A stretch of 32,502 nt of DNA from an uncultured Planctomycetales bacterium (GTDB taxonomy: Bacteria > Omnitrophota > Gorgyraeia > Gygaellales > Profunditerraquicolaceae): contig CAYOMI010000002.1 in assembly GCA_964405005.1 (NCBI GenBank), positions 1 to 32,502 on the forward strand. Direction: 5' to 3'. A program made the position numbers and the translations under genes. The notes beneath the pieces are model-generated. The model saw nothing but the letters and a program-made list of their open reading frames with translations. It was not told where the DNA came from and searched no databases. This document shows positions 1 through 25,508 of the stretch, piece after piece (the stretch's first letter is position 1; every line of letters begins with the position of its first letter).

Positions 1-3000
1 ACTCTAGGTAGGCCTTGGCTGGAGGCATCTTTAGGAACATCTGGTTGATAGCCGGTTTTCTTAATGAGCCCATTAAGCAAATCCATCATTTCATCATATA
101 GGGCTCTATGCTCTGCATATATATTTGCTATATTATCTATTTCCTTAATTATGGCCTCAATTCTCTTATTTATATCCGCAGGAGTCTCTCCTTTATCTAC
201 TTTCGCATTTAAATCAAGGAGTTCTTCTTTAATTCTCGCTATCCTTCTTGCAGTTTCTGCTTTTTCCTGAGTATCTCTGACTACTCTTTTGCCGGGTATC
301 TCTACTTCTATTTCTTTCTTCTTACTCTTGGGTGTTACTGCCCTAGGCGTGGCTACTTTTCTCATAAATGCCCTAACCTTATGGGTTATTTTCTCAGTTT
401 CCTCGCGAACCTTTCTATCCAGACCCCTTGCTTCTTGCTTCATTCTATTAACTTGCTTTCTCATCCTTCTATCTTTAATGGGAAGGTCTTGGCTTATTTT
501 ATTTGTTCTTCTGTAATGCTTAACTATTTGCTTAACTATTACTAATATCTCCACCAGTAAAATAGCTCCCAGAACAACTAATGTTATATTATACGGGTTT
601 TTAAAGAAATTAACCCATTCATGAGAAGGCGTGGGGGTTGCCAAGCGATGAGTATCTATTGGTGATGGAGTTTGCGTAATTCCTGTGTCAGTAACCGTAC
701 CAGTCTTTGCGCCTACCAGAGATTCAGGAACATTTAAATTAGTAATATCTATTTTCTGGCCTATATAAATCTTATTGATATCTACAAATCTGGGGTTATC
801 TGCCTGGATTGCTCTGTAACTGTTATAAACCGCGCCATTATCACCCCAGAACTTGCCTGCCAGGAGGGATTTTCCAGTAGTAAGTAAATTTAAGGCATTT
901 AAGCCAATCCTTAACATCTCTACAATATGGCCCCAGGTATCGCCTTTCTGCACTAAAATATAAATCCTGTTACCTTGCTTGATAACTTCACCACAAGAGG
1001 CAAACTCTGGCAAAGCAAAGATAATAAAGGCGGCTACTAAAACTATTACTGTGGGTAAAATTGCCTTTATAAAACCAGAACCTCCATTGCCACCAAAACC
1101 ACCCTCAGGCATTATAGGATTATTAGGTGTTCCGGGTCCCTTGCCACCTGAACCGCCATCACCCCCAAAACCACCCTCAGGCATTATGGGATTATTAGGT
1201 GTTGTAGGTCCGGGATTAAATTCAAAGGTGGATTGTTCAAGATTAGGAGTGGAAGTTGTATCTGGAGCAGAAGGAGTAAATTCAAGGTTAAATGCCTCAG
1301 TTCCGCCAAATTCAGGCGTGGTTGAGGTAGAGGTTGGGATAGAAATAAAAAGTAGGTAGTCGTGTTCTTTTTTTGCTTCTCTTAATTCTTCTCCTGTCTG
1401 TGTTTTTTCTGTTTCCAGTATTGTTTCTTGAGAATCTACTTTTAGGGAGGCAGGAATTCTTGTGGGCTTATTATTTTTAGGAAGATTCTGGGTTGCTGCC
1501 CTCTGAAGATCTTCTCTTTTCTGTTCCGGGGTGCGATAAATCCCACTAGTGTTAGACGCAGAAATAGAACCTTGCTCAGTTCTCTCACTTAAAGTTCTTA
1601 CACCTTGGGCATCTAGGCTTTCTTTAGTTAGATTGCCTGCTTTGCCTTCTGCTACTACCTGCTCTTTGCCCACTAATGCTTGGGCAGTAGAGTCAGTATG
1701 CACAACTGCATTGGATTTACGGTTTAAAGATTTTGCAAATTTGCGCGCTTGTGTTAAACCACGACCAGCGATTGCGCTAATCGCTGTCGCCACTCTGATA
1801 CCCGGATGGTAAGTGCGGTGTGCTCCTCCAATAATCTTGATTAACTCTTTTACGCTCAGGACATTATCAGTTATCTGACTTAAGCCCAGGCCTAAACCAA
1901 AGCCCTGATGAATCTGGCCTATGCTGCTACCTGTCGGCGCAGGGATATTAGTAGGCGTCTCAGGTAAAGGTGCTGGCTGTTGCCTCTCTGCGGGAATATT
2001 CCTGCTAGTCTGGTGCTCTCCTACTATTGCCCTGGCCTGTGTAATTAAGGTTTCCTTATTGTCTAAGATATATTGCCTGGACGCAATACTCTCTGCCATC
2101 TGCGCCAGTAAGTCAAATATATTAGAAAGGAACTTTTCCTCAGTTAAATTATTATTGAATTCTAAGCCATTAGCCAACCTTTGCAGGTGCTCATCCGTAA
2201 TCTCGCCTAAATTATCAAAAGCCAGAGCCACTGCCACTGCCTCTTTTACCTCCTTAGATAAATAGGGATACAACTGGTTAAGTTGTGTATGCCAATACTC
2301 ATGCTTTAAATTCCAGAGTCGGAATTGACTGGATTCAGTGTGGAATTTAGGTTCAATGATTAAGCGGCCTTTCTCATCAAGAGAAGTAACAGGCTTAGCG
2401 TTAAACATCATAAAGATTGAATTGGCAGCACTGGGAACCGAAACTCCAAAGTCAGGCGCAATTTGTTTAATCTTACTGCTTAATTCCGTATGCGACTGCT
2501 GAAGTAATGTATCCTTTACCCATTTTGCTAATTCCTCTGAGTTCTCTATTTTTGCTGCACCATTTCCATTGTTAGTTATGGCGGCTGCTAATCTATCAAA
2601 GAAGGATAAGGCCTGATTATTTCCCTGCGTGGCTTCTTTTAATATGGCGGCTAAAGCCAGCCAGAGCACTACTTCTTGGTATTTAGAAGCATTTACTGCT
2701 GCCGTAAGATTTACGGCTAATTTACCATTTCTTATGCCATTATTTGCAAAATATGTTTCCGCAAGCAAGCGCTGCGCTTCAAATTCTTTAACCACCTCTT
2801 TATCTTCACCATTGTGCGCCTTGGCCAGCAGTTGATGATAGAAAGCAGTCATCTTTTTATTTAAAGGATCATTTTCTTTATATTCTCCATTCTTTTGGGC
2901 ATCCTCTATAACTTTAGCCTGCTCATCAAGGTAACTCTCAGTTACATAAATAGAGCCATTCTCCTGCCAGGTCTCTCCTACAAGAATGGAAATTTCTCCC

Positions 3001-6000
3001 TCTTTTAATGAAGTTTCCTGGCTAACATAAATTACCTTTCCTGACGTATTATTTATCTTATACACTACCAGGCCTGCAGGATGTGTCTTTCCTTCCTCAT
3101 CTTCTAACTGCAGATCTGACCAGCGCACGATATAATTATCTTTGATACCCTTTAAGTTATTTATCCTCTCTAAGATTACCTTTCTCTGCACAGGAGTAAG
3201 TTGTTCTAAATCAAAAATCTTTTCTTGCTCATCAACCACTTGACCATTTTTTATAGAGGCAGTAGCAGCTTTCTTCCATACTTCTACCTCAAAAACCTCT
3301 AATGCTTTCTTAACTACCTCTTCATCACTATCCTCTAATAATTCTGTAAACGCATCAACAACCTCATCATCTACCTTAATCTTCCTATTCTCTACCATAG
3401 CCAGCAGCGCAAGTTTACCTTGCTTATCAAGGCTGCCTTCCTCTAACATTTCTAAAGCAACTTGCTCTGCCGCTTCTCTATTTTGTGCCTTCGAAACAAC
3501 ATTTGCCCAGAATCTTATTTCTACATCCTCGTCATTTAGATATGTGTCTAAATCTTGACCTGCCTCTGCCAATAACTGCGCTGCTTTTCTACGGATGGAG
3601 ATAATCTTTTCTTGATATTGCTCATTGTTAACCTTTCCATAAGTACCCTTATTGAGCAAATTCAATAGTTGTCCTTTTACAGCATCAATATTTCCGCCAT
3701 TTTCTAACACTCCTAATAACCTTTCTATTTCTTCTAACTGCGTAAGGTTCGGCCTCTTTATGTTGTCTAATATAGTTCCCAATTGGCTGGGTTGTTTTGT
3801 CTCTCTTAAGAAATCTAATAGCAAGGTGCGGATTTCTGGATTCTTGAATTCACTGACATTAACCTCTACTTTTAAGTTAGGTTCTGCCTTTAAGTTAGGT
3901 TCTGCCTTAACAAATTCAGAAATAATCCTGAATACTATCTTAGCAAAACTCACCTCCAGTTTATCTCGGTCAAGTTTCATCTCTTTATGTAGAGAATTTA
4001 TTAAACTATCTATCATATTTTGGGTCGGTATCACTTTCTTATTCTCCACCAAGAAGGAGATGGTTTTTTCTAAAGCAGAAATGAGTTCTTGAGCGTCTCT
4101 ATTATCTCTTAAACTGCTAATAAGGTGAATAATTTCATCGGCCTTAACATTAATCTCATTTATTACTGTCTTATAGTTGTGCTCAACTAAGATATCTAAA
4201 AGATGATTAAATTTCTCAGTTAAGATAGTGCATAATGCAAGATTGCCTTCCTCTATAATAATACCCCAGGCAGAATTGATTTTTTCTTTATCTGCTTTTT
4301 GTGGATATTTGGCATAAACTGTTAACAAGGCAATATTTACCCAAATCTTTATATCTTTATCTGGGTCATTCAAATAACTTTCGATAGCGGATAAATCGCT
4401 TTCCACCAATGAAGCCAATACCTGCAGGGCAATAATTTTATCTGCCTTATCATCAGTTGATAATTTAGTTTTCATAAATTCTCGAGCAGTCTCTGGACCA
4501 AACTGGTTAATAAATGAAGATATCTCACTTTCAGAAAGTTTACCTTTCTTATCGCCTATTCTCTTTAGTTTCCTGTAACTTACGGTAATATCATTCTTTC
4601 TTCCTTCTAAGCAGTCAATAATCTGCTTAATCTCTGATGCATTAAGTGCTTTTTGAACATCTGAAATTTCAACTTTATTCTTTTCTGCCCAAACCTTAAA
4701 TAATCCTGCGGCTTCATTCCTTAAAGCAGCATTTTCCTCTTTTAGTAAGAATACTATCTGCGTAATGGTGGTTCTATTAACATAATCAAGCAATTTTTGT
4801 AATTTCTGAACGGCTTTAATCTCCATCTCTGGCTGGCTGTTTCTTAAAGCAATGTTTACCAAGGCCTGGACTAAATTCTTACCAAATTCTTCTCTCTCTT
4901 TTCCTTCTTTGACTTTGCTAAGATTAATGTTTTCTATTGTCGCCATTGCTTGCATATGGAACGAATCTAATTTTATATCCTCTTGTTCTTTCTTGCTCGG
5001 AGCATTGACAATTGTTTCTAATATAGATAAAGCCAAGGAAGGATTATTATCAGCGATTTTTGCAATTATGTCCATTGCCTGCTGGCGCACACCAGCACTC
5101 AATTCGTTATTAAGCACAATCTGGCTTAATGCTGGTAAAGGATTGTGTTGCTGGGAAACTGTAGAGATATCCTTTACCCTGCCATCTAAAAATGCCGCTA
5201 AGGCCTCAGCCAAAACATTATTTCTCTTATCTTTATCTTCTTCTCTTAGGCCTTGCTGTAATTTTGTGGCGTAATAATCCACTGGGTGGGTCACGGTTAG
5301 AGTGTCTTCTGTCTTTACATCTACTCCTGTATTAAATGCTCCAGTAAAATTAACTTTCTTAATTGCTTTGCGCAGTGTCTTTTCTTCGCCATCCCAGGCA
5401 TCAAGACCAATTTTTCCTTTTATAATTTTTAAATACTCTACATCCTTGATTGCGCCGTTATCGCTATCAAAGAGGAAATGATAGAAGGCCAATTTTCTAA
5501 CCTGCTCGGTTCTGGCACCATCACCCATTAAAATCAAATCCAGAACTCTTTCTTCGTAATTAGTACTTTCAAAAGTAACTTTATTATTTTCCCTTTGCTG
5601 TCTTAAAATTTCTTTTGCTTTAAGATAATCCTCAATGTCCTTTTGGCTAAATACAGATTTATTGAATTTAAATACGACCCTGCCAGTGTATAATGAGCCG
5701 ATGCCTGCAGCAATTGCTCCTCCTATTCCTGCTGCAATGCCGCCTATCCCACCGATAAAAATAGCCGCAACCAAAAGGCCTGCACCTATAACCGCAAAAC
5801 TTATAGAAGCAAAACTTGGTTTCCAAGAAGAAGTTAGCCGCAAACCGAATTTTCCTGCATAATCACTACTGGCAAATTCCTCTACTTTGGCTTGGGCCTG
5901 GGCTTCAACTGCTTCTCTAAAGATATATATCTCGTTGCCATTTCTGGCAGAAAGCGGTAGACCTTCAGCTACCTTTTCTCTACGCAGAGTAATAACCTCG

Positions 6001-9000
6001 CCTTCTTTTTCCGCATAAAAGGCCTCAATTCTTCCGTTTAGATATACCAAACGGAAATTATCACCTACATCAACCACTCCTTTGTCCAATAACAACCCAT
6101 TAATCTGCTCTACATCCAAACCTGCCTGCTGCATAAGGCCTAATAATCTTGTGGCTACCTGATTTAAAGAAGCGATATTATCTGCGGCTTCCTGTAGCGC
6201 TTGACTTACCTTTGCCTGCGCAATTAATTCCTTTGCCTTCTCTATTCTTTTTGTTTTATCTGACCTTACTTCCTCTTTGCTCAAAAGATAAGGAGCATAT
6301 CTTGAGATTACCTTATTCAGTCGGCTGTCGTTAAGCACCTTTTGCGTAAATTCCTCTTTATCACTGATAGGAATTTCTGTAGTACTTAACTTCTGCATCT
6401 CTTTGCTCTTTATTAAATGCCTTCCCCATGAACCAATGCCTCTACCAAAAATATCCTGCGGGAGTTTAGTAGAATTAAAGAGGTAGAATTGTTTTTCTGG
6501 AAGCGGCTGAACTGTCTGCACTGTTCCTTTTTCATCCAGCACAACCCACATATCCGGCCGGGCAAAAAGCAGCGTTACAAAATCGCCGTTAGCCTTCATT
6601 ATTAATAACGGCTGGCTATCCTTAGCATAAAATTCCTTATAAATATCGTCTGTTTTAACTCTGTAGGTATATGTCTTTTTGTGCAGTTTTTCCAGCAACT
6701 TAGGAATATTATTTACCTTGTGTAATTTCTCCTCCAGAGCATACGCTAAAATTACATCTATTGCTTCCTTTCTGTCTATACCCAGTGTTTCATTGAGGGA
6801 GTCTACTAAATAGGGGATATCCTGCTGAGAGCTTATATCCTGCAGTACTTTCTCTACTTCCCTTGCATTCATCAACAATAATCTCTTGCTAAGATTTTCA
6901 AGCCCAATCTCTTTTAAGAAATCCCGCTTTTCTTTCTCAGCCTTCAGCTCATTCCTCTGTAATTTATCTTTAAATTCTCTCAAAGAATCTTTTTGCGCGT
7001 ATAATATAACTTTACCTTTACTTTCTTCTGCGTGACGATTATAGAAACTTACTTTCTCCTGAGAGAGGATTTTTTCGTAACGGTGTTTTAATTCTTCGTA
7101 TCCTATATCCCAAATTCTCTGTGTCCTTGTAAACCTCACCTCTCCCTTAGAACCCAAATCCATCAGGAAGAGGAATTTGTTAAACTGTTCTTCGTAATTC
7201 TGCTCAGTTATAGTTTTATCTATGCCAAAAATCTGTTTTATTGCGGTTTGTAGGGAAGCATTTACGTTTTGCGTATCAAACTTAGCTAAGTCTGGCTGGA
7301 AACTCTTTCTCCAGTATTCAAAAAGGGCAACCTTCTCCTCTTTAGAAAGCTCATCCACCCGCTTCTGGGTGCCTTTGTTTCTTATCTCTATTACGCTCTG
7401 CGCGTCTTTTACCTGTTTTTCAATTTTCTTTAATTCTTCCTGCATTTTTTGCAAAACTTCCCTGGCCAGACGGGTATGCTCGCCTGCTAAAATATCCTTC
7501 GCCGCTTGCAGGCGCATAAGTTGTATATCTTTATCATTATCTGGAGTTGCTAACAAAGATTTTAGATTTGCTAAATAAACAGGGATCCTCCCTAAAGCAT
7601 CATTTCTACTATTCGTAAGTACCGCATCTTCTTCCAGTTTATCTAATTCCTTTAAGGCCTCCTCAACGCTCCTAATCTCATTTTTATCATCCTTTATCAA
7701 TCCTTTATAGAGAACCACTAAATCCTTAATTCTCTGCCGGTGCGTAACTGCTGAACTTCTTATAACAGCATCAATCACAGCAGAAACCGCATTAAGGTCT
7801 TCTTGTCTGACTTGAACTGTTTCTGCCTCTTGTCTCTTTAAATTCTTAAGTATCTCATTTAACTGCTTAATATTCTGGGAATAATCCAAGGATTGCCCCT
7901 GGATATTATTTATGGCTTGGGCTAAGTTTTTTAATTGCTGCTCAATTTTGTTAAGCTCATCTTTTACAGCAGTATCTTCCTGTTTGATTTCCTCACTTAC
8001 CCACTCATCTCTTGTAATCCCTGCTTCTGCCCAGCGGTGCACCAGCGTATCTAACTTCTTCAAAGTTTCCTTTAGGGCGCTCCTTAACTCTGCTTTTACC
8101 CGCTCATCCTTTATTTTTTCCAGTTGTGTATTGATAAATTTCTCGGTTATACCTTCACGGCCAAAGCCAGAAACCATATCTTTTCCCTCAGTGTTTAGGG
8201 TTTTTCTTAACTCCTGCTTAGCAGTAAGATGAACTAAAAGGTCTCTCCTGACCTTGTTATTTAGGGCCTCTATTTCTTTTACTTTTTCCTCTGCGCTCTT
8301 TTTCTCTTCCAGTACCTTCTTTATGGTGTAGTAAAAATCTTCTCTCACTTCTGCCTTTTGGTTATCATCTAATGTGGTAGCTATCCCTGGCTGGCTTTTG
8401 TCAAAACCAAAATGTTTCTCTGCTGCTTCAATTGCCTTAAATATCTGTTTGGCCTGCTTTTTTAATTCACCTCCCACATAGGTTGTGGCGTCACCCTCAA
8501 AGAGGGATTTTGCTTTTCTGTTCTTCCTATCTTTAAGCCAATCTTCAGCAATCTTTTTAAAATGGTCATCTTGCTTTTCTGATAATTCCTGTAAAGCCTC
8601 TCGCATTCTCGTAACACAATCCTCGTGCTTTTCAGGCTTATCAGAAACCTGCAAGGTCTTCTCTAAATTTTCCTTGAGCATATCACCCAAAGCTACAGAC
8701 CTGGCTTTACCGCACAATTCCTCTCTCTTATGCGCATAATCTTCATCTACTAATGTAGGTAGGGAACGCAGATACCGGTAGGTTTTCTGCTCTTCTTCAG
8801 ACAGGAAAGAAAGATATTTTTCTACTCTCTTATCTGATAACTTTCTTATTGCGCGAATGTCTAAAGTATCTTTAGCAATAAAAGGATTAGAGAATGTTAC
8901 AATTGTTTTTATAACATCATCTCTCTTTATTCCGCGTTTTGCAAATTTCTTGACTATCTCTTCGGCAATCTCATCTGCTTCTTTAAGACCCAGCACAAAA

Positions 9001-12000
9001 TCAGGGGATTCCTGTTTCTTTTTATGGATAGTATCAAGGATAGTAGCATCTAAGTTTGCTCTACCAAAATTAAGCCGGTGATTAACGTAACTGTCAGGGT
9101 CTTTTTGCGCAAAATGGATGAGAAAACCTGTAGCAGTGGCTGCTATACTGTATGGTATCCAGGTAAGCCAACCCAATCCCCGTGTGGTAAGCCCGCCTAA
9201 TCCCATACCAAACGGCGTGAAAGTTATCCATTTACCCGGCTGCCTATACCCAGATAACCCCAGTTTTTCTCTCCACAATTCAATCCAAGCGGTTCCAGAA
9301 GTATCAGTTTTACTCTTTCTCAGCGTCTCTACCACATCCACAAAGGGGACCTTCTTGTTACCAAAATTTGCTTCTCTTGCCTTTAAGAACTCATCATAGC
9401 CAAGAGAAATTCTCTTATCCAAAGAGCGTAATTGGTCTGAATAAAATTCTACGGTTTGTTTATCCGTCGCAGATAATAGGCCCTCTAACAACCTATTATA
9501 AACTTCTCTGTACTTTTTCTCTTCCTTTATCCGCCAAGAGAAATTTCTTAAACTGAATGCCAATGCCATAGTTCGTTCTTGCGCCTGCTTAGCTTCTCCT
9601 TCCATTTTTTGTATTGGGCTAAACAACTTCTTTATCTGCTCTTCTAATTTAGCCTCATCCATTGATGCTGCCTTCACCAGCAAATTCCGCGTCGGCCTTG
9701 CCTCTGTCCAGTAATAGAGACGGTTATTATTAAGAACAAATGATTGGGATTGCTCCAAGAAAGAAGTTCTATTTCTTAAGCGATGCTCTTTAATTATTGC
9801 TACAGGATTCCACCATTTCTCTCCTGTGCGGGTTACTCCTCCCAAGTAGTAATAAGGATTATCTATAAAATCTTGAACAAGAATCTGTTTATCTTCTAAT
9901 CTTAATAGGCCGGATTGAGATTGGCTTTGTGAAGTAGTTGCTCCTTGTGGCTTCAGTATATCTTGGACATCCAGTATATTTTGCCGGATATCTGGCAGAA
10001 GCCGAATCCGATCATAAGCACCGACTACGCTGGCTAAATGGTTAAAGGTATATTCAGGATAAATCAGGGAGGTGACAAAATCTGCATCTGCCAGCCGCTG
10101 CTCTCTTGGAGTTTGACTAGCGGAAGAAGTAAATAAAGAATCATTTATTGTAGTGTAAATTTGGGTTATTCCTTGAATAGAAACTGGGCTAAGTGATTGC
10201 CCGGATGATAAATCGGGGGCGAGTTTTTCAAGTACAGGCTCAAGTACAGGCTTAAGAGAGGGCGCAAATGGCACAATATGCCTTAATAACTCTGGAGACC
10301 CCCGCGTGCCGTTTGAAAGGATAACTGTATCTAAAAGACGTGTAATTGCTATCCCTTGGCTTTCTGATAACTTAGATAGACCGGCTTGCTCACGCTGGGT
10401 ATTTAGGTAGTTAATTACTCTCGCTGCCTTGGCATCAGTGGTGCGTAAGTTATTTGCCTGAATATACTCGGTAAAGAGGTTACCTTTTAAAGCCTTGCCA
10501 GCAGCAACTATCTCCCTAAAACTAGAAACGCCGTTTATTGTCCTTTGGGAATCTGCTGTTATGTTGTTATATCCCTTAACCGCCACATCTATATCTGTTA
10601 AGGTCTCTTTGGCATTAAGTTTGACTAAAGGGTTATTTATATCGCTACTACGAAGTATCAAGCCCATATACCCTTTTGCCTGAGTGGCCACACTCTTTAA
10701 AATCCTCTCAATTTGTTTTTCCGCAGAATCAGGGTATTGGGATACCAGCAAATCATCCCAGGTAGGCTTATTCTTGTAGTCAATGGCATCCTTAAGAATC
10801 TCTCCAAGAGCCCTAAAGGACTTATGGTCTTCTGCTGCCTCAGCAGTAACCAGCATATTTTTTATCTTCTCAATAATAAAAGTTGAGTAGGCGGCATCTC
10901 TTAACTGATTGCTAATGGCTTTGTGAATTTCTACTACTTCTAATCTCTTGGCATTGGTAAGCAAACCTTCTACATCTAATCTCTCGGCATTAGTAAGCGA
11001 ACCTTCTACATCACCGCTACGTCCTTTAATCTCTATAACTTTCTCTCCCTTATAACGAGAGTTAATTCTTGCATTTATTTCATTTAATAAATATTTAGGC
11101 ATATTGTCTGTACTCGGGGCCTGAAAATATACCCACCTTTCTGCATCTTCTCCCTTGCGGTTGTTACGATGGATACCCTGGAGCAAACGAGTTAACCGCC
11201 AGTTCTGGCCATCAGCGATAACCAGATTAATATTCCCCTGATAATCCACACCTGTTGCTCCCTGTTCATTAGATAAAATCACCCTTATCTTTCCATTGTC
11301 TAATCCCTGTACGTTTATCCACTCCTTGCTTAGGGTATCAATATCCTGGGGCTTGCTGTTAATATTTATTTCTTTTAACTCAATTTGTGATTTTTTACTC
11401 AGTTGTTTCTGCAATTCTTGATAAAGCTGGCTATCCCTAACTAAGATAAGCCCATTCCTTCTTCCCTCTAAAATTTTCTGCACAATATCCCCTGCTAATT
11501 TTTTACTATCGGAGGTATGTGAAATAACGCTTGTACCATCAAACTTTGTCTCGGAAATTTTCTCTATACCCCTTCCTATTTGGAACTTAAGCATTAATTC
11601 CACAGAATCAAGCGTGCCGGAAAAACCTAAGACGCTGGTATGCGGGCTGAATTTAAGGATTTCTGTCAAGGTTGCCTGCGAATTTGCCGGTGAGGTATAT
11701 AATTTAGTAGGGTCAACTCTATGGGCCTCTTTGGCTGCCAATGCTGCCAATAGATACTTGTCGCTCATTACCTTATCCGGCTCAACCCTTCCTCTTTCTA
11801 CTACCAGGATACCCCCTTTATCCTTCCCTTCATTAATGACTTTATATCTTCCGTTTTGTCCCTCAGGATAAAACCTTGCTCTCAACACTGCCTGGGTTAC
11901 CTCTGGCGACAAATGCAACTCTCGCTCAAATATCTCTCTGGCCTTGGCATTTATCACTACTTTTTCCATCAGCGCATCGTAATAAAAACCTGGTCTTTGA

Positions 12001-15000
12001 TTCTCTTTTACCTTTTGAAAGCTCAATTGCTCAATCCTGCCTTGGTGTATCAACTGTTTAATTTTATCCCAGGCCTCTTTGGTAGTCCTTATTATATCAG
12101 TAGATAAAGGTATTTTTCCTTCAGCAGTAATGTAAGCATTGTCGCTGGCAAAATGCAGGTGAAACTCATCAAAGCGGATGACATCCTGAGTATTTAGAAC
12201 TTCGCGGAAAGAACCACGCAGTATATTATGCAGGTGACCGAAAGAAACATCATCAATCAAAATTACGGCTTTAGGATCTTTAAACAGCGCCTCCAATAAA
12301 TTTGCTTCACCGTTTCCTATAGGGACGAGCCCTAAACCAAAAGTGTCAAAAATCTCCTTGTATTTGGCTTTGGAGACCTGTTCTCCATCCCTAACCACCA
12401 GAGTCATATTCTTTCTGAAATTAATCTTGCCTTCTTTATCTACTCCTTCTGCTCCCCATAAAGCATGTATAACCAGTTCAATCATTCCAGGAAGGGTTTT
12501 TCCTCCTCCGGAGCGTAAGAGGGGATTCTTTTCTTTAAATAAACCACAGAGCATCTGTAATCCTTCTGTAGTCTTTTCAGGTTCCTTAATTTTTCCATCT
12601 TCACCAAATCTTAATTTTGCTTCTACTGCATATGTCTTTAAGCCCACTTTGAATAAATCAAAGTAGTAGTCACCTGCATATTTCCCTTTGCCTATAATCC
12701 CCTTGGCTTCTTTTGCTAAATCCGCTCTTATCGCTTGATCGCTTCTGCCCTCAAATGAAGTTATGCTCTGATTAAATTCTCGGATGAAATTATCTAGGTT
12801 AGCATTTAAAATGCCTGATTTAGGCTTCATTGTTCCGTTGGGATTAAATTCTACATTTAGTTTGCCCTCGTTATTTATTAACCCTACTTCCTGCGCCTTC
12901 TGCAAGGTTGAAATCTGAGCAATCAATCCTTTAGCTGCCTTCTTCAAAGTTGCATCCACTAATAAATCTTCTCCTTTGACACTCTCGCCGTCTTTTGTGT
13001 TGCATATTTTCTCCAATAGTTGTTGTGCCTCGCCTATTTTGCCGTTATCAACTAATTCTCCAAATACTCTCGTTCTTAACTTATGCTGAAGTTGAAATTC
13101 TAACCCGCTATTGGGGTCATTAATTATTTTCTCTATTTCTGAACGTTTAAATTCATACCTATAGCCGCCTTTTACCTTTAGCGTAATAATTTCTTCTTCT
13201 TGGCCATTGGCTGGTGTTTCTTTAAATTGTTTTTTAAGTTTCTGAATTTCTTTCATAGAATTGGCCTTAAAGAGGGCAAATCTTGCTATGGTAGAAATCA
13301 GCACTGGATCATTAATATCCAAGGTATCTGGAATATCCTTACCTGTCTGGAGATAATAATCCCGGACCCTATCCATCTTTCTAGTTGCCTCTGCATCTGG
13401 ATTCGAGGTTTGAGTTTTAAGCCTCGCAAAATAACCCTCGACATATCCTTTATGTAATGAATCTGCTTTGCTATGGAGTTTAGCAAGTTCCTCTTGGCCT
13501 GCTCCCTCTAGATACCTTTGCCAATAATCATAGCGCGCCTGATAATAATCCTTTTCTGTTTTGCTTATAGGTTTCCCAAGTGCTTTGCTGTAATTATCTC
13601 TTCGTGTTGCAAAATCTATTACTAAACTTTCATATCTACTTCTTAATTCTCCGGTTAATTCTACCTCAATCTGGTCTCCTATATTTATTTTCCTTATTTT
13701 TCCCTGTTCGGTTTCAGCGCCAGATTTAATCTCTCTCTCACTTTCACTAACTAAATCACTACCTTCATATTGTTTATAACCGATTTTAACCTCTCTGAGT
13801 CCGCCGACACTCCTTTGCCGCTCAATTAATACCTCAGCAATCCTCTCTGCGCCCTGGCCTCTTTTTAATTCGCCAATATCTATTCTTGCGGAAAGTTTAT
13901 CCTCGCCTACCTTAAACTCTACTGTCTCGCTACCTGTCTCTGTCTCAGTAACCACCTTTAAGGATTTAGAGGTAAGTAATTTAGGGTTCCTTTCTATAAG
14001 ACCTGCGTTAAACCCTCTTAACTGAGCATACTCTTCCATTAAAGGCATCAATCTATTTGCCTTATCTCTCAATGCCTTTAACTGCTGCATTGTTTCTTGA
14101 CTGGCCCCACTATTCTCCAATGCATCTTCTGCCTGCTGGGTTGCTCTTCCTTTTCCAAACAAAAATATCTCAAGGTGTTTTTGTATTGCTTTCTGTTTTG
14201 AAGTTTGTTCTGGTAAAAGAATTTCTGCACGGCTAATGATTGCTTTCTTTGCTGCTTCTTTATCACCGCTATTAAATGCATCTCTTATACCTTTTTCTCC
14301 TCTATAAACTTTACTAATTGGCTTTTCAGAAGATCCATAAATGGTCACTTCGCCCTCAGGAGGAGCATTCTCTTCACCAGAAAGAATTATTTTTCTCTTG
14401 CTAGGGCTGGGAAATTCTCTCTCTATTTTTTCCTGAATGCCTGCTTCCTTTCTCGATATTTCCGCAATTGAACTATATTTATTAAATCTCTGGAATTCTT
14501 TTAATGTGGCGCCTCTGTTTATCTCGCCAGGGCCTTGGGGTCCGCGTCCCTCATGCACAAGAAGCAACTCAAGATGCTCAGGTAAAATATTGCCTGTCTT
14601 TATAGCCAATCTAACCCAACCTATAGCATTTTCCTCTTTAGACGAAGGAGCAACTGCTTTATAATTTGCCATCCCTTTCTCAAAGTTCTCTCTATTTGTA
14701 AAATTATTGTAGACCCTGTTAGTTAAAACATCTGTATAAAGACCAGCCCTCTTTATACTATCCAGAATCCTTGCCACGCCAGTTACATAACCGGAAATAT
14801 AAAACAGAGAATCAATTTCTGCTACGATAGAGTTTTTATTCATTATGGCAGCGAGTTTTCCCAATTTTCCTGGCGCAAGCGCGGATAGCCATTTATTTTT
14901 GGCAAACGCCCAATCCGCAGCTGATACTATTTTGGTTGCAACGCCACGTGAAGCACCCAATTTCACACTCAGACTTTGATAACCGGTCTCAGGCGCTAAC

Positions 15001-18000
15001 TCGCGGGGTGTATTCATTGCTATCCTCAGCAAAACCCCCATAAATTTGCCGTGCTTGGCAGCAGCAATATACTGCAGTGCCTGCGCCCGGTCAATAGAGA
15101 AAAGTTCGCCAGCAGTAAGAGGTCTATAATGTATCTGTCTTGTTATGGGATCTTGTTCTTCTTTGCGGAAAGGATACCATTTGTCTGCAAATTTCCAACC
15201 CCAGACCGGTTGATCCATATTAATGTAAAATACATGGTCAACAGTTTTCTCAACTGCTCCTATGGTTGTATCCCAGACCGGCTTAGCCTTATCCATAACT
15301 AGAGAAATAAATGGCCACTTTACAGTTCCTTTTAAAGGCTCGGCCACAAATTGATGCACAAGTCTCTGTTTTGGCCCTTCAGCTAACTTTACCTCTTCAT
15401 TTGCCAAAGTCCCGTAATGTTTAACATTCTTACCCACATTATTAAAGTATTTATTACCCGCCTTTGACAAGGCAAACTGCACTAACTTTGCATAAACCGC
15501 ACCTCTTATTCCGCTTACTACAATCTGTCCAGGACTGGCTTTACCGGGTATTAAACCATTACCTGAGATTAAATTACCATCTTCATAAACCAAGGGTTCT
15601 GCTCCAAAGGACCTGCCTGTTTTCTTTTCTAAGTAACCAATACCAAAATCTCTTCCTATATTTATCCCTGCGCCAGTGGCTATAACACCGACATTACGTA
15701 TTAATCCGCTGTAGTCGGAGAATTTGCCTGTAAGATTTCTATTTCCTCTTAAAAATTCGGAAAGCTTGCCAGAAGAGGCTAGAAAACGCGCGTATGCTCC
15801 CCAAGTAGCTGCCTCCATCGCTGCTTCTTTCCATTCATTAGTCTTAAAACTATCTAAATCTATTGCCAATCTTGCCGCAACAGCAGTGGCTGTCCAGGTT
15901 GCGAGAGTAAAAGTCCTCTGCGCTGCCCACGTCCATCTATTTATTATCAGCCTATCATCTACAACGCCGTAGTATGGATTAAAAGAGAAATTTAATATCT
16001 TACCGAATCTATTCTCTGTCCAGAATTTTGATTTTGCAAAATCAGTATAATTTGCTACTCCTCCGGCAAAACCAATTATTCCGCCAAAGAACGCTCCGCC
16101 TTTTGCTCCTGCCATCCAGCTTTCGCCCTTTAGACCTTGAACGATTTTAACTAAACCTCTCCCTGCCTGACCTCTAAATACATCCTTTATGCCTCCTCCT
16201 AAACTTAAAAAATCTAAACCCGTAAAACTCTGAATATTAAATTTAACTGTATCGCCAAAACTTGCATTATTTAACTCAGGGGCGTGCAACACATTATTGG
16301 TTGCCATATCCACATTACCAAAGAGAATAGCATTATTAACTATACCTTTATAAGTAGTAAATTTTATTGCCGCGGGTTTCAAGTTCGGCGCAATATTCTC
16401 TGTAGGAATAAATCTTCCATCAGCGGTTTTCTGCAGTAATCCTTTGGCTGCAGCCCTATTATTAAGGTGTATATTAAACATATGTAAACCAAAAATAGTC
16501 CCAAAGGTAATCAGTGTTTGAGGAAGATATTTCTTATTTACATCCCAACCCCAGAGCGGCTCCTGGTTCCAAATCATATTGAGAGTTTTGTTCACCAATA
16601 ATTCTCCTCCTGCAAAAGCCAATCCGGATAGAGCGGCACTTCCTTTTGTCGCAGGGCTAAGTAGCCAGTTGGCCTTTGAAGAAAGATTTAAACTGCTTCC
16701 TACTTTACGAAGAAGTAACAATTCTGCCAGTATCTCAAATGCATTACCTGTCCAGCCAGCAGCTTTCAGGTACCCTTCCCGCTGCTCTTTTGCCCAAGTA
16801 AAAGGATGCCAGTCTCCTCTCCACATATTCCATATTTCCTCACCAAGGGCCTTATTTTGCTCGTGAAAGACCTCTTTGTGTCTCCAATAAGAAGGCATAC
16901 AAGCATAAATAATAATCTTCTCTAATGCCCAGCCAGGTGATTCTACTATGCCTCTTGCTGAATTAAACGCAGTTCCTGCCAGCCTGAAAGGAAACTCTAT
17001 TTCCGCACCTGTTACCATTAGAGCCAGATTAAGATTGGGAGCGTATAAAGCTTTTTCTATAGGGACGAGTTTTCTCGTAATCCACCAAGACCTGTTGATA
17101 TAATCTTGTAAATCCTTCTGCGTTTCTCCAATCCATATGCTTGTGCTTTTGGCTATGTCATAGAGGCGTTGGTCTTTCTTATTGGAAGAATTCTTTGATT
17201 GCATAATTAAATCTGCGGCAGCTAAAACCTCCTCCAGTGAAACATTTCTCTGTTGAAGCTGTCCTCTCAAAAGCTGATTCTCGCCATGCCGAGCCTTCAT
17301 AAGATCCTCTGTTGCAAGCTCTACACATTCTCTATCAAGCTCGATTGCTTCATTAGACTCGGGTGATAGTTTATAGAACTTATCATTATCCCCGCTCTTG
17401 GAATACTTAAAAAAGACTCTGCCATCATTAGCGTAATGCACAATCTGCACAGGTTGACCTTTGTAATAATAACCTAAAACATTATTTTCATCTTCTTTTA
17501 TCTCTAGGCCTCCGGTAAAATGATTTACGCCTTTAGATAGCGGGTCAGTAGTAAAGACTTCACGGTAAGCAGCCTTCGCTGTATAACTTTTGTTAGAGAC
17601 GACTACCTGAATGCCTATTGAACCATCCGGATTCCTGCGCACATTTATCTTTGCATTAGGATTATTTTCTATTTGTCTAAGGATTCCCAAAATACTCAAC
17701 ATGCTATTGTCTCCCAGATTGCTAGCTATACTTAAATACTCTTTGGCTTTCTGGTTATCCTTTCCTAGTAGGTAAGATATGCCAAGGTTGTGATACATTG
17801 CATCTGCGCCGGGAACACTCCTATCCGTTAATCCTTCCATAAGCTGAGCTGCTTCAGTTATTCTTCCGTATTCAAGGCTGCGCTTTGCCATTTCTACTTT
17901 TTTCACATCCTTATTTTGAAAACCACAAACGATTTTTGACTTACCAGCGAGCATTTGCAACAAGTGCTCTCTAACAACTCTTCCTTCGGCATCCTTACCA

Positions 18001-21000
18001 ATAACCCAGACCTTAGAAAGATCCCAACCTGCTTCTTTATATCTCTTCTCAAGTGAAGAATCTCCACTTCCGCGTATAGCAAGTTCTATAATATCTTTTC
18101 CGTTATGCAGGGAGACATGGCCTATGGGATTATCGTCGCGCGTCATATATACAATGCTATATTTATTAGTACCGATTTTTTCCATTAATTCACAAGTAAG
18201 CAAACTAATGCCTACACAGTTGAGCCCCTTCTTACTGTCTTTATCTGGATTTATTCCTCCAATATGTAAGTTGGTATTATTATAGATTAAATCTAAAATA
18301 AATTTCTCCTTTAATTCCTGAGAAATATTCAATTTTTGCATCTGCTGACCAAAATTATCCCAGGTTAATCCGCCGGATACACCCAAACGCACAATCAAAT
18401 TTTCTATTGGTATATATTGACTCTTTGGGTCTCTCCTTTCAAATAATTGATTATACAAATCCGTCAACCATTTCTTAGAGTCGGTGGAAAGATGGCTGTA
18501 AAAACCAATATCAGCGCCAGAGAGCACTATCCCACGTTGGCCGAGGAATAAAACGTACGAACCATTTTTAAAGTAAAGTTTTTGGTCATTGGGGCTGCCG
18601 CCGACTATCTGTTCCCTGTGCTCCACCTCATTGCCATTAATTGCTACAACCTGCGCCTCACTTCTAGCCCTATGCTCAAAAGTTACAGTGGTGGTATCTT
18701 TTACATTTTGTGTATTCCCAGAGATATATTGCCTATCATAGCGGTATCCACCCCGAAGAAGTGTAATACTCGGGCTACTTTGTCCTTCCTGCCAGTTGAT
18801 TTTGTATTTGCTTGCGGATAACCAATGGCCCTCTGTTCTCTGACCACCAGCAGTAATATATTCGGGTATGATTATTTCAGTTTTTCCTTTCGCCTTGGGG
18901 GGAGAAACAGAAATTCCTTGTTCAATTTTCTTCTCCTTCTCTGAAGCATTTTTACTTAATGGAGATATATTGTAGGGTTGAAATCCTCCATTTAAAAGTA
19001 CGGCCACTAATTGTTGGTTTTTCTTTGTAGCAAATAGGGCTAAAACACCAGTTCCTTCAATTGGTTCTGCATCAGCATTAACTCCAAACAATCTAGATAT
19101 GGCTTTAGTAAGTGCAACCCCGGCGTTGGTGTTTTTCTTATCTTTATTATAATCTATTAGTGCTATATCTTGTGGCTCCAGAAGATACCCTTTACCTTTC
19201 ATATGCAGCATTGTTACTTTTTGGCCTTCTACAATCTTTTCTTCTAATTTAAACTCTGAAGGATCATAGGTATCGGTCAAATTAAACCCTCCCCAGCAGA
19301 ACCAACTTTTCCAGCCGCGTGGATTTTCTCTCAGGGTTTTTAATTTGAATCTCGCATATGGACTAAGTGTTTTTCTCGCTATAATACCATATTGTTCATC
19401 TGAAGAACGTTTTTTGCCATTTCTGTCACGCAATAAGGCAGAGTGTACATCTTTATTTGCGTCTACCCAAAATAATAACTCATCTCCTTCTCTATCATAT
19501 CCAATCCATTTCTGCCCTGGCCGAAGCTCTGACTCCTGCTTTGTCTCTTTTCCCATTACCAGATCCAGAAAACTTGACTGGTTATTGAAGGCGCCTTGGT
19601 GGAAGAAGATCTTTTGAGTGCCGTTAATGTCTAAGAGAGGGAGACCTAACTCTTTATCAATCACTGCAGGAATTTTATCGAGCCACTTTCCTTTTTCAGC
19701 ATCAAAATATTTCAACGCAGAGAATGAGCCGGGCTTATAGCGGTATTGGATAGTGCCTTTCTCATCCTTGCCTAATACCTCAAATTCATAGGAAATATTA
19801 AAAAGTTTGCCAATAATATTGCCGTCTTTATCCGTAATAAGGTGATTGACGCCCTCGGCTCTTTCACCTACTCCTTTATTATAAGGCCGCTCATTAGCAT
19901 CGAATTTTATCTCTACCGGCTTTTTATTATTCATTCCATAGGGCTTAAGATAAGTTGGGCCAGCGGTGCCCATCTGCTTGGCAATGGCAATTTCAAAATA
20001 AGGAGCCACGCTTTCTTTGGTAAAGGTTATATTACCATAATATCCGTCTAAGCCAGCGCTGGCAGAGAATGTTCCCTGGTGGGAGAAGATAGCAATCTGG
20101 TTGTCGGCAGTCAAAATCCTTTCTTTAGTGCGACGTATCTCAGAAACTCTGTCTTTAACATTAAATAATGGTTTATCATCCTTCTTATTATGCCTGTCTT
20201 CAGGGGCCTTTTTGTCTTTGGGTGTATCATAATCTAGCGTGCGCTTGGCAAATAAATCTATGCGCGCCGTGCCAAAATCCAAACCTACATATTTTCCGTC
20301 ATCACTTACCAAACCACGAATATGCTTTTCTATTCTTCCATTCTCCCTTCCATTATCAAAACCTTCGGCAGAGACTGAGTCTTTCTTATATTTATATTCT
20401 ACGCCGCTCTCTTTGTTGTAACCCGTAATCTCACGAACAAAGGAGACACCAGATAATTTGGCTGCCATCTCCTGGATTTCCGTGCCTTTTCTGTTCTGTT
20501 TATTTATAGGTTTAATGCGGCCATCCTCTCTTACTCCCGGATAATTCACCAGCATATTCACCGCCTCAAACTGCTCGCCTGCGCCCAGGGTAAAGAGCTG
20601 CTCGTGGCTGTTAAATTCTAATACCCTTGCTTTTTCTCCTTTTTTATGCTCTTCTCCGTAAGGTAATACATAAACCCTGCCTTCGCCTATTCTATTTCCT
20701 GTTTCATCTACGATATTCTGTAAACCCAAGGCGATTCTTTCAAAAGAGGTAATTTCTTTACCATTTTCCATTAAGGCCGCATTTGCATAATAGCCATCTA
20801 AAGTTGCTTGGGTAGAGAAGGTTCCCTGATGAGAGAAAATACCCCTTTGATTATCACCAGTAAGAGTATTGCCGCTTACGCCTATATTAATTTTATGACT
20901 TATTGTCTGGTCTGCTCTGGCTGGTTTGTCGGTCTTACTGGGCTCATAACCCAAGCCTGACAATTCCTTCTTTAGTGTGTTTATTTGTTGTTCAATTACT

Positions 21001-24000
21001 TGGCGATTTTGCTTCTTATCTAACTTTTCTAATTTCTTATTCAATTGGTCTATTTGAAAATTTATTTCACCAATTTTATTTTGCCGCTCAACCTCTTTTT
21101 CCTCAATATCAGAGAGATGTTTGCCTAATAAAGCAAAACGGCCATTGCCAAAGCCTAAGATGGGCGCACCTTCTTTTGTAAAGGAGGCGGGTTTTTCTAT
21201 TTTTACTTTAGGGCCTACGCCATCGTCAAAACTATCTGCAGTAAGAAAATCATACGTATAATCAATGCGACCTGTCTGTGCGTTATAACCCTTAATTCTG
21301 CGTATAAAGGAGGCATCCTCTAATTTTCCCAAGCCGCTTCTATTGGTAGTATCACGCTCACCTTTTTTATCTACTTGCACATAGTCCGTAAGTAGATTAA
21401 TTTTATTAAACTGTTCTCCTACGCCCTCAGTAATAACAAAACCGCGCGAATCAAATTCTATTTTATTAATCTTACCGGGAAGCAAAGATATAAGATTGTA
21501 CTCTTCAATTTCGCCTTTTCTCCTTGTTTGGATACCTACTGGAATATTAGTAACTTCTGTGCCTGCGGTATTATTCAGGAAAACATCCTCAAAATTTCCC
21601 GAAAGACTGACATAGGGAGAAGTTAAATTATTCAGGATGAAATCTACTTTTTGTTGATTTACCAAATGCCTGCCGCTTTCTTCTTCTACTCTAAGATTCT
21701 CTTCAAAGACTGGGCCGTGGTGTCTCTGGTAAGGTGGTGGAGAAGTATTGTTTTGGTTAAAGATCTCTTCGGCTGTAGGAATTTTTTGGTCAATAAGCTG
21801 TTTAAAAATTAAAGGATGTTCTTGATTTATCTGAATTATAGGCTTGCCATTTTCAAGGCGGCCTGTTATAGCCAGGTCTTTTATATCTTTTCCCACTAGC
21901 ACCTTGGCATTTTTTGCTGCAAAACTTAAAAACCCTGTTCCATTCGCCCAGAAATCCACGCCTTCTAAAAGCATTTTATCTGGGCTAATTGCAATCTCTC
22001 CGACCTTCTCTCCCTTCTTATTCACTACTGGAGCCTTTATCGTTCCCTTCTCATCCTTAATAAAATAAGAGCCTAAAGCCGTCCCATCCACCCAGCCGGA
22101 TTTAGCATTAGTTCCTGCCACAATACCTTTATCGCCAAAGGTAAAGGTTCCTACGCTACTTAGAGCCGGATTATCAACCCTGCCCCACTTATAATCCTTC
22201 GCCGGATTATTAGAGTCATTCGCTGCCGCAGCAATAATATAACCTCCTGTGCGCTCATGCTTATCATTCACAAAAGCATGCGTGGCCCACTCTGTCATCG
22301 CCCCTTCTGCTCTATAACTTGTGTCCTTATCAAATAAAAGCCGGTTATTTACGCCTACGCTTACCCAATTATTTTTAATTTCAGTCTCCAAGGCTGCCAC
22401 TGGTTTTAAACTGCCATCAGCTGAGCGGATTTCGTAGAGGCCTTTATTAACCAATTCACGAATAAAGAAATCTGGTTGACGGTTGGAATCAGCGTTTATT
22501 GTGGTAGGACCTGTCTCTGCGGGATTCTGCACACCCGCATTATTATTCCCATTTCCCATCTCAATCTTGGGAATAAGCTGGGTTAAATAATAATCTTTGA
22601 CTTGCCAAATCTTTCCATCCTTGTATCTTATATCAAGGTGTTCATTTATGGGTATAGCTTTTAGTTCTTTGCCTGTCTTTTGCTGGTAATAACCCCTGAC
22701 CTCTGCAGAGCCATCTCTCAAAGAATTATTATAATTACTATCTTCTTTCCACCCGCCTGTGGGTGTATAGTTAGCGCGCCAGATATCCTGCCCGGATTTT
22801 GCGCTATAAAGATACGCCAGATTAGCCACATCATTACTCACAGTCCTTAGCCACTCGGGTTTACCCCATTGCATATCGCCTTGGCTGGTGACACTGTATC
22901 GAAGCGCATTATTTTCAGATAATCCAGGAGTAACGGTAATTTCTTTAGTTTGAATATTGCGCAGAACATTGGTAGCGTCTTCAAAGCCCATTTGAACCTG
23001 GCCAGTCGGCACCTGCCAGTTACCCCAAATAGCGGGTGTATAATCCAGGCCTCTTTCTCCTGCACCTAAATAGAATTTTGCTTTGCTATCTTTCTTAATT
23101 CCTTGAATTAAAAGGGTATCCCTATTGGGATTTGTCAACTTACCCGAACCTCCTGCGCCGATTTTTTCTACTAACTGCCGGGTGTAAGCGCTATTATCAC
23201 TTCCTGCACCCATTCCAGTAGGTATATTTACGTGGCTGGGCATCTGAAAATCACCTTGGTTCTCAATTGCTAAAAGCCGACCCTTATTATCCCCAATCAG
23301 TGCTGTAATATCAGCAGTGCGACGGTTAGTATAATCTGAACCCATCCAGGATTCTGTGCTTCCATACAAACGAACCTTCGAATCTTGTCCTGTCTTTATA
23401 TTAACCGCCTTTTCTAGGCTATCCACACTCCCATCTACAAACCAACCCTGTTTAAGGGGCATTCTTGCTAATGCTTTTCCCTGATTAAGAGTTCCATAAA
23501 ATACACGGTCCACACCTTGACCGGTAATATTAACACGCGCGGTTTCACCATTGTCATAGGTGAATGATAGAGCATAAGAACGCTCTGGCCCCAATTGCGG
23601 GCCCACGCCCACAATTACGGGTTTATTTGCTGAGGAATCGGGATTAATGAAGAATATATCTTGGCCTTGACCAGCCGCAAATTTAATTTTATCCCCCACT
23701 CCTGGAGTAACGCCCATATTGGTAAACCTGATAGTACTGTTTGGCTGCGGAGTCAGGGTATAAATACTTTGCGACCACTGCGTAGCAGTTACATTCATTG
23801 ACTCATTATATTTGGAAGGAAGCAAATTTCCTGCGGGGTTAGAATATGCCTCAGGAACTACTGGGTTGCCAATCGCCCTGCCATAAGGCTGCATATCCCA
23901 GACTAGAGGGGTGGAAATGCGGGCATTATAGGAGAGGTCATTAAAATATTTCCCTACCCAGACCGCCATCTCTCCGCTTACCGGGCCGCTATAAGAAAGA

Positions 24001-25452: not shown

Positions 25453-25508
25453 AAAACAAAAACCGGATTGTCAAATACTAACTTTTGCGTCGGTATTCGG
25501 CAACCCGG
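25453..25508 (-). terminator. Intrinsic-terminator (attenuator) hairpin plus U-tract in the giant-gene leader; overlaps the 3' part of the riboswitch aptamer
   Basis: In the RNA, CCGGGUUGCCGAAUAC pairs with GUAUUUGACAAUCCGG over 16 positions (1 C-A mismatch, 2 G-U) with a 14-nt loop, followed by UUUUUGUUUU (plus 25453..25462). The ATG lies about 37 nt downstream. Confidence 0.7.

Follow-up and report, generated by a model that had tools for sequence, protein, structure and literature searches.

Introduction

Giant proteins of the Omnitrophota have been described in two recent preprints, and in the portions cited here the first of these gives them N-terminal C39 peptidase domains near signal peptides, divergent SecA DEAD domains by transmembrane (TM) regions, and TM predictions that are considered unreliable (West-Roberts et al., bioRxiv 10.1101/2023.11.21.568195). 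The second, in the sections drawn on here, assigns 39% of 916 long proteins to a class with a signal peptide plus TM helices (SP+TM), with C39 and SecA-DEAD as the two largest architecture clusters (bioRxiv 10.64898/2026.06.07.730766). In this article, I will discuss how one such protein may be threaded through the membrane, using the giant open reading frame (ORF) at positions 3 to 25415 of the window, that is, of the whole 32,502-nucleotide stretch analysed here, which is one entire contig (C2; GenBank CAYOMI010000002.1) of a metagenome-assembled genome (MAG) of 1.86 Mb in 320 contigs, 77% complete. The ORF encodes 8,471 residues, the N-terminal part of a far longer giant protein from an uncultivated member of the Omnitrophota, and what is new about it is modest: a conserved TM-loop-TM unit with family-level support from the positive-inside rule, and a missing return crossing that maps to a conserved "block" domain.

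Otherwise this is an ordinary member of the described giant-protein class. It resembles the giants of West-Roberts et al., as the cited portions present them, in its Omnitrophota origin, in a signal region followed by C39, in a divergent SecA/DEAD-like motor close to TM segments, in many TM helices and in being mostly blank to Pfam; it differs in being represented by an 8,471-residue fragment, in which a Pfam scan found no dockerin, TSP3 or glycosyl-hydrolase domain, and in a link to SecA that consists of a profile match at E 2.4e-4. Among the traits of the class, the Omnitrophota genome, the signal region with C39 and several TM helices along the chain are all found here, and as for a length of 10,000 amino acids (aa) or more, the ORF has 8,471 codons and is open at the contig end. 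With the SP+TM class it shares the signal peptide and the scattered TM helices, at about one helix per 850-2,000 residues here versus roughly 2% of residues there; that survey, in the sections cited, is DeepTMHMM output in which domain placement is not tested against biochemical constraints.

The initial annotation of this DNA had arranged the hydrophobic segments of the ORF into an alternating in/out path, and I would put the chance that the chain is threaded along the following version of that path at about even. An N-in anchor at residues 67-89 would export some 2,800 residues, comprising the C39 peptidase, beta-rich repeats and a Sel1-like part. The chain would then re-enter the cytoplasm inside a weakly hydrophobic all-helical domain, likeliest via 2931-2949, 2964-2984 and 3104-3124, so that the rest of this block (about 3290-3640), the ATPase (4150-4900), a charged helical region, a HEAT-like region and an HExxH motif would all be cytoplasmic. 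A segment at 5392-5437 would either dip into the membrane or be merely peripheral, and a Gly-zipper stretch at 6533-6579 would dip in as a hairpin, in both cases leaving the side unchanged. Helix 8116-8137 would exit, displaying a 137-residue LysM-like loop in the periplasm, and helix 8275-8295 would return, a step for which relatives give support; the protein would continue in the cytoplasm and onto other contigs. The features concerned are listed below, residue r corresponding to nucleotide 25415-3(r-1) on the minus strand, and KD19 being the Kyte-Doolittle hydropathy in a 19-residue window.

3..25415, minus strand: giant ORF fragment of 8,471 codons, ATG at 25415, stop-free, 3' end open at the contig start
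25149..25217, minus strand: N-terminal signal anchor (residues 67-89; KD19 2.28), with the conserved PEQVAQAVEYDW motif after it
24501..24923, minus strand: Peptidase C39 domain, residues ~165-305 (Pfam PF03412, 34 bits against a cut-off of 22)
14496..16667, minus strand: conserved all-helical "block" domain, residues 2917-3640, without canonical TM helix or known fold
16044..16625, minus strand: three family-conserved, near-uncharged block helices (2931-2949, 2964-2984, 3104-3124), candidate membrane crossings
10716..12968, minus strand: SecA/superfamily 2 (SF2)-like ATPase with two RecA lobes, residues ~4150-4900, from a family profile search
9105..9242, minus strand: weakly hydrophobic Gly/Trp/Thr-rich segment pair, residues 5392-5437 (KD19 maximum 1.15; Goldman-Engelman-Steitz, or GES, scores 1.19 and 1.57)
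5679..5819, minus strand: Gly-zipper hydrophobic stretch, residues 6533-6579, with a 46-residue uncharged run (GES 2.23 and 1.46)
2289..2303, minus strand: HExxH motif HEYWH, residues 7705-7709, by inspection
1005..1070, minus strand: TM helix before the loop, residues 8116-8137 (KD19 2.68), read as running inside to outside from family flank counts
594..1004, minus strand: 137-residue "LysM-like" loop, residues 8138-8274, predicted outside, with GDTWG...IYIGQKIDI motifs in alignment A2
531..593, minus strand: TM helix after the loop, residues 8275-8295 (KD19 2.72), read as running outside to inside, with 5 lysines plus arginines (K+R) in the next 15 residues
3..530, minus strand: basic helical continuation, residues 8296-8471, predicted cytoplasmic, 24.4% K+R, net charge +15, cut by the contig end

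Four clear helices in a fragment of a giant protein

TM helices were called by KD19, by summed insertion free energies (dG) of the Hessa 2005 type and by GES in a TopPred-like window. Only four places are strongly hydrophobic by KD19, namely 67-89 (2.28), 6533-6555 (2.43), 8116-8137 (2.68) and 8275-8295 (2.72), and the Hessa-type sums return the same four together with marginal stretches at 5402-5433 (4.5-6.0) and 6564-6582 (5.4). At KD19 >= 2.2 there are 6 threshold crossings versus a mean of 0.56 in 200 shuffles, none of which reaches 6; windows of KD 1.0-1.6 are rarer in the protein than in shuffles. GES gives 14 candidates, 10 of them "certain", of which those at 2917, 2964, 3104, 3165, 5392, 5413, 6538, 6559, 8118 and 8275 coincide with the positions in the initial annotation and extra ones lie at 7653, 7826 and 8019. 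The 14 observed at GES >= 0.6 are not above chance (15.9 in shuffles), and the sole enriched GES class is that at >= 1.4 (7 observed versus 1.5, with one of 200 shuffles reaching 7). The helix positions proposed earlier are real uncharged stretches, but only four of them are clear TM helices; the signal anchor and the helices given as 1005..1070 and 528..590 are borne out by strong hydropathy, above shuffles. Composition along the chain (beta-type versus helical residues) shifts gradually, without a sharp compartment boundary.

The ORF is a fragment because the contig ends inside the open frame and at least 11 further contigs of the MAG are giant-ORF pieces, each wholly or mostly one open frame (1,239-6,236 aa; nine open at both ends). 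They probably derive from the present gene, or from one or two further giant ones, and none could be joined to the present contig. Of the earlier claim of a real, functional single polypeptide, the reality of the ORF is upheld, whereas a single polypeptide may or may not result, the ORF being a fragment that also carries a C39 peptidase with conserved candidate catalytic residues; the "basic tail" is basic, but, as the frame runs off the contig start, it is not the tail of the protein. Nucleotides 113-3000 were found without differences in two public DNA runs, which may be the source sample itself; the contigs from both runs are short and of low depth, none reaches beyond the contig start, and no RNA sequencing run was listed as holding this stretch. 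Twelve such frames, most of which take up their whole contig, were noted on MAG contigs C8, C20, C25, C40, C51, C54, C56, C82, C85, C92, C95 and C10; clusters of strong TM helices occur in many of them, and C82 matches contig C9 of genome G199 at 37% identity.

The two ends of the path

The best-supported part of the topology is the TM-loop-TM unit, whose loop had been placed outside between its two helices. Among 300 further Omnitrophota genomes, four have the unit (residues 8126-8284 here), each time inside a frame of 12,356-57,099 aa, and its alignment runs from a hydrophobic helix often ending in A-x-A, through GDTWG-x-IV, a variable stretch, I-x-x-GQ-x-ID-L and a linker, to a W-rich helix and a basic cluster. 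All five copies obey the positive-inside rule, with K+R counts in the 15-residue flanks of 6, 6, 7, 7 and 6 on the cytoplasm side versus 3, 2, 1, 2 and 2 on the loop side. In the copy of genome G091 (locus L004, G091:C1, about residue 6373 of its frame) the first helix ends in AQVAQAVEF, near-identical to the PEQVAQAVEYDW that follows N-terminal anchors, and since those anchors run from inside to outside, the likeness was counted in favour of the first helix going out. In genome G197 some 400 residues, none of them in a strong TM helix, lead from the second helix to an ATP-grasp domain (27 bits; cut-off 23), and a second ATP-grasp domain following the unit scores 47.4 against 26.8. Together, the flank counts, the G091 motif and the G197 domain support a loop that faces outside. 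Three details of these copies stand apart: the G091 motif looks like a second, internal use of a signal-anchor element; the G197 frame (L015, G197:C6:1-20000; 57,099 aa and open at the contig start) has tandem QKEVLGGKIDE repeats at its beginning; and in L006 (G270:C15) a second helix ending in AAANAGQFA follows the first LysM-like unit by about 150 residues, so that the unit may be tandem.

The N-in orientation proposed for the other end is supported too. The anchor has 4 versus 2 K+R in its flanks and is conserved in 21 of 21 relatives examined, all of which keep the K/K/R N-flank and the acidic PEQVAQAVEYDW C-flank, with the exact AQAVEYDW in 10 of them. These were drawn from 26 loci in which the anchor plus C39 N-terminus was found at 47-68% identity, mostly in Candidatus Omnitrophota/Omnitrophica (L070, L083, L090, L091 and L092 were omitted, the match being at a contig end or at another offset). 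The anchor sequence WIRVVAFIVVAVFLPEQVAQAVEYDW is near-invariant in relatives (positions 24381-25253, minus strand; loci L068-L093), a constancy seldom seen in signal or anchor helices and one that points to a specific interaction or to processing at this site. Behind hydrophobic stretches, the pattern [AVS]x A x [EQ][YF] does not recur internally, there being 5 matches in 153,117 residues: three at N-terminal anchors, one internal in G091 and one without a preceding hydrophobic stretch.

The C39 label that follows the anchor is secure by its Pfam score, and Cys175, His259 and His264, its candidate catalytic residues, are invariant in 22 of 22 sequences. The domain is like the C39 of bacteriocin-processing ABC exporters (PF03412) in scoring above the Pfam cut-off and in its invariant Cys and His, and unlike it in following an N-in signal anchor, in its predicted periplasmic location and in having no ABC transporter domains attached; the C39 domain of ABC exporters is cytoplasmic. 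Further along the presumed ectodomain, a transglutaminase (TGase) label found no Pfam match at E <= 1, and a tetratricopeptide repeat (TPR) label reached only E 0.19 in Pfam, as Sel1/TPR.

The strongest of the alternatives, which I nevertheless regard as rather unlikely, is that the product is processed into pieces with separate locations, whether through its own C39 domain, through signal peptidase acting at A-x-A sites behind in-to-out helices, or through the two together, in which case a single topology is moot. The C39 candidate catalytic residues kept in all 22 sequences would suit such a scheme, as would AQA-type motifs after the N-terminal anchor and after the pre-loop helix in G091, G093 and G270, and cleavage is raised as a possibility in the cited portions of West-Roberts et al. 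(bioRxiv 10.1101/2023.11.21.568195); against it, no cleavage site was identified, although a double-glycine leader was not looked for.

An ATPase that should be cytoplasmic

The label of a SecA-like ATPase is backed by a family profile search, in which DDX42 scored 1.1e-4 and SecA (3jux, 4ys0) 2.4e-4; Pfam Helicase_C reached 23.4 against a cut-off of 23.5, Pfam SecA_DEAD had no match at E <= 1 on the giant ORF, and phmmer of the ATPase against the PDB gave none at E <= 1. The module is like the SecA motor in its two RecA-like lobes, its GGGKT Walker A and its DEFH Walker B, and differs in that the DEAD-box helicase DDX42 scores as well and that the motor is one module within a giant membrane protein. 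About 180 residues lie between Walker B and motif III (positions 267-268 and 448-450 of alignment A1), presumably matching the spacing made by the SecA preprotein-binding insert. Fifteen of the 300 phylum genomes have the module, always within frames of 1,407-82,151 aa, and in alignment A1 (8 sequences at 25-30% identity, taking the longest matches, from 7 of the 15 genomes) K157, D267, E268, G448, S450, Q597 and R601 are invariant, the conserved features being the Walker A Lys, the Walker B D-E, motif III and an Arg. Invariant catalytic residues argue for a working ATPase that needs ATP, and hence for the cytoplasmic location originally given to it, where the module should be.

The HExxH motif assigned to the same side is present at residue 7705, whereas the HEAT-like label beside it has sub-threshold Pfam matches only. 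In three relatives (P0015, P0017 and G135:C1) a HEITH motif follows the ATPase by 620-676 residues with no KD19 peak above 1.4 between, which would place both on one side, as the initial model needs. The motif of the relatives, W-R-x-x-L-x-x-V-x-L-x-HEITHV, is conserved and zincin-like; in the giant ORF, the distance from the ATPase to HEYWH is about 2,570 residues and takes in the charged helical region, the Gly-zipper and the HEAT-like region.

The missing return crossing

With an N-in anchor and a cytoplasmic ATPase, the chain has to cross the membrane an odd number of times somewhere from residue 90 to about 4150; no strong TM helix occurs between residue 95 and the block, which is the sole candidate region. 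The initial annotation filled this gap with a multi-pass block at 15650..16950 (residues 2823-3256), a description that hydropathy does not confirm for canonical TM helices: KD19 peaks there at 1.16, the Hessa-type sum falls to 6 or below in no window, windows of KD19 >= 1.0 are fewer than chance (4 versus a mean of 6.6 in shuffles of its own composition), and the GES candidates number 4 versus 3.56 in block-wise shuffles, 100 of 200 of which reach 4.

The block is nonetheless a conserved entity, with 16 relatives among 1.84 billion representative proteins, all of them fragments or parts of long proteins, and it is present in 3 of the 300 phylum genomes; a search with residues 2800-5500 among proteins of near length only returned no homologues. 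Its C-terminal two-thirds (3290-3640) are well conserved, with the motifs KWPFVS...WDT, GxxMGP and GFVTGxxR. AlphaFold2 (AF2), given 15 sequences, folds it into an all-helical bundle with helices of 21-41 residues, at a predicted local distance difference test (pLDDT) score of 64.4 and a predicted template-modelling (pTM) score of 0.62. Three helices are near-uncharged across the family (2931-2949, 2964-2984 and 3104-3124, singled out by family-averaged hydropathy at 2931-2949, 2964-2982 and 3103-3121; family-averaged KD19 0.97, 0.99 and 1.31; charged residues 9%, 5% and 2%), with GES values of 0.87 (2917-2937), 1.47 (2964) and 1.53 (3104), while two further helices bear conserved charges. After residue 3124 there are 4 K+R within 15 residues, and net charges of +11 and +18 are found over 2800-3650. 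In relatives, stronger helices occur at or just before the block (P0003 at 1145-1176, 1198-1219 and 1402-1423; also P0009, P0011, P0014 and P0017), and in the three N-terminally complete relatives the stretch from anchor to ATPase has only Gly/Ala/Ser/Thr-rich, weakly hydrophobic segments and no classical TM helix. Taken with the parity demanded by anchor and ATPase, this suggests a return crossing within the block, via the three near-uncharged helices.

Of the two hairpins of the initial annotation, that at 9130..9240 is not a canonical TM element (KD19 1.15, summed dG 4.5-6.0) and is visible on GES only; residues 5300-5520, used as a phmmer query on the collected relatives, matched nothing at E <= 10, and the strongly hydrophobic counterpart that P0008 has at a comparable offset (KD 2.27, about 60 uncharged residues) is without detectable homology. 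In the Gly-zipper stretch the first arm, 6533-6555, is sound (KD19 2.43), and the whole is probably a helical hairpin. Both elements are basic on both flanks, with K+R of 4 and 3 around 5392-5437 and of 3 and 4 around the Gly-zipper, as would be expected either of an in/in hairpin or of segments that do not insert.

Weighing the path

Several results weigh against the path set out above. The block helices and the 5392-5437 pair lie below canonical TM hydrophobicity, and their number is what local composition would give; G199 is without the third putative block helix (3165-3185), and alignments are poor N-terminal of 2960; fold searches with the block stayed below the noise line (Foldseek best E 0.059, to a membrane pyrophosphatase; VIA best Z 5.9). 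The 5392-5437 element is lacking in five of the six relatives compared, no relatives of the Gly-zipper were found in the 300 phylum genomes searched, and Pfam LysM (PF01476, gathering score 20.9 bits) has no match at E <= 1 on the giant ORF. Nor did a crude enumeration of topologies, combining the 10 "certain" GES helices with all 16 subsets of 4 "putative" ones, single out the path: under the strict TopPred rule, in which loops of more than 60 residues are ignored, the best solution has the ATPase outside, and under a 15-residue flank rule the best score, 13, belongs to the topology of the initial annotation in a tie with a solution that puts the loop inside. The weak rows of the block Foldseek and VIA lists, all under the noise line as well, are mostly membrane helix bundles.

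The positive-inside check favours the anchor and the TM-loop-TM unit and does not select a topology for the whole chain. The internal consistency once offered in support of the path is weak evidence because it comes largely from free choices of parity: there are about as many of these (the block and two hairpins) as there are constraints, and the result is best under one scoring rule only, where it is tied. That the chain makes an odd number of passes in the block, and that the two hairpins are hairpins, are suppositions of the path.

An alternative that would make a virtue of these weak elements, and that I consider unlikely, is that 5392-5437, possibly together with the block helices and the second arm of the Gly-zipper, is not transmembrane but made of buried or interfacial helices in soluble or peripheral domains, and that the chain crosses in some other manner, such as threaded in the translocon or after cleavage. 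The hydropathy of the weak elements, under TM level and not above chance, points in this direction, as do the packing of the AF2 block helices into one compact bundle (mean KD 0.06-0.97) and the lack of the 5392-5437 element at its position in most relatives. However, this would leave no route from the outside to a cytoplasmic ATPase, and it sits poorly with the stronger helices at the block in relatives and with the basic residues on both flanks of each hairpin.

Less probable again, and quite improbable in my view, is that only the clearly hydrophobic helices span, with the ATPase and the LysM-like loop outside and the tail inside, either as the anchor, 2964, 3104, 5413, both Gly-zipper arms, 8116 and 8275, or as the anchor, one Gly-zipper pass, 8116 and 8275. 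It can draw on the facts that these are the sole segments above chance in shuffles, that the strongest GES helices alone (>= 1.4) give just this arrangement (loop out, tail in, ATPase outside), that the strict TopPred optimum also has the ATPase outside, and that predictors often give such "unlikely" localisations, according to the cited portions of West-Roberts et al. (bioRxiv 10.1101/2023.11.21.568195), but an ATPase with an invariant Walker A, Walker B and arginine needs ATP and hence the cytoplasm, and the HExxH module of the relatives and the ATP-grasp domains of G197 argue that such enzyme modules lie inside.

Is the loop a LysM domain?

The threaded path would display the loop where a peptidoglycan binder could act, and I think it slightly better than an even bet that the loop is a LysM domain with a 35-residue insert. 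It is like LysM (PF01476) in its first motif, GDT-x-x-x-I, its last motif, I-x-x-G-Q-x-I/L-x-I, its beta...alpha...beta order in the AF2 model and its extracytoplasmic position; it is unlike LysM in having about 35 extra residues and one extra helix between the halves and in forming a conserved unit with a TM helix on either side. Aligned by hhalign to 12 local LysM domains (alignment A4: 12 plus-strand LysM loci of the 20 returned), A2 gave 8% probability over 17 columns, and with relaxed settings its halves were colinear with LysM 1-26 and 25-51, the C-terminal half at 52% and E 1.4e-4 and the whole core at 22%. Protein-atlas neighbours of the loop are almost all LysM clusters, a lead only, since their scores of 0.85-0.88 are under the 0.9 line. 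The AF2 core is beta-beta-helix-helix-helix-beta (block-mean pLDDT 55-80); Foldseek on this model returned nothing at E <= 0.001 and the VIA list was filled by the C-terminal TM helix, and the A2 profile against the PDB gave only a chance-level match to the TM helix of FKBP11 (E 2).

A six-frame LysM search of the MAG found three canonical LysM domains elsewhere and did not find the loop module, and a canonical LysM occurs in a 7,707-aa frame of the relative G224. A Clostridia locus that shares the peptide AGKFWGDNG with the unit has no other similarity and was judged a chance match. The word "LysM" is absent from the main text of both preprints on these giants (bioRxiv 10.1101/2023.11.21.568195; bioRxiv 10.64898/2026.06.07.730766), and LysM domains inside gigantic Omnitrophota proteins are described, in the part cited here, in the Lipocone paper (bioRxiv 10.1101/2025.01.14.632903). 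Omnitrophota giants are also reported there to have Lipocone domains, to which the block might possibly be linked.

Neighbouring genes and leaders

Two further features of the window belong to the leaders of the giant gene and of its upstream neighbour.

25495..25584, minus strand: c-di-GMP-I-GGC riboswitch (cyclic di-GMP; Rfam RF03167, 71.4 bits, gathering score 59), within the giant gene's 5' leader
32303-32423, minus strand: second c-di-GMP-I-GGC riboswitch (RF03167, 61.6 bits against 59), leader of a 2,089-aa OmpA-domain gene

In the upstream protein of 2,089 aa (25972-32241, minus strand), a signal peptide and a hydrophobic N-terminal region rich in Gly, Ala and Thr are accompanied by an OmpA peptidoglycan-binding domain at residues 1482-1567 (52.9 bits); BLASTP found no similarity between it and the block of the giant protein (best E 0.81).

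What the path would mean

In the cited portions of both preprints, the membrane topology of Omnitrophota giants is called unreliable or unvalidated (bioRxiv 10.1101/2023.11.21.568195; bioRxiv 10.64898/2026.06.07.730766), and the present analysis indicates which parts can be trusted, namely the N-terminal anchor and the TM-loop-TM unit, where the positive-inside rule is obeyed across relatives. It also isolates a real gap, in that the chain has no classical TM helix on its way from the exported N-terminal part to the ATPase, which must be cytoplasmic, and this gap maps to a conserved domain without known fold, making it a concrete target for insertion assays. The block stands 200-600 residues upstream of the SecA-like motor in four proteins, and a long shot, though one that I find worth stating, is that it is a new stop-transfer or re-entry domain teamed with the built-in motor, the motor exporting the 2,800-residue ectodomain through the Sec channel and the block sealing or leaving that channel without a classical TM helix. 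If true, this would explain why predictors misplace the motors of giant proteins.

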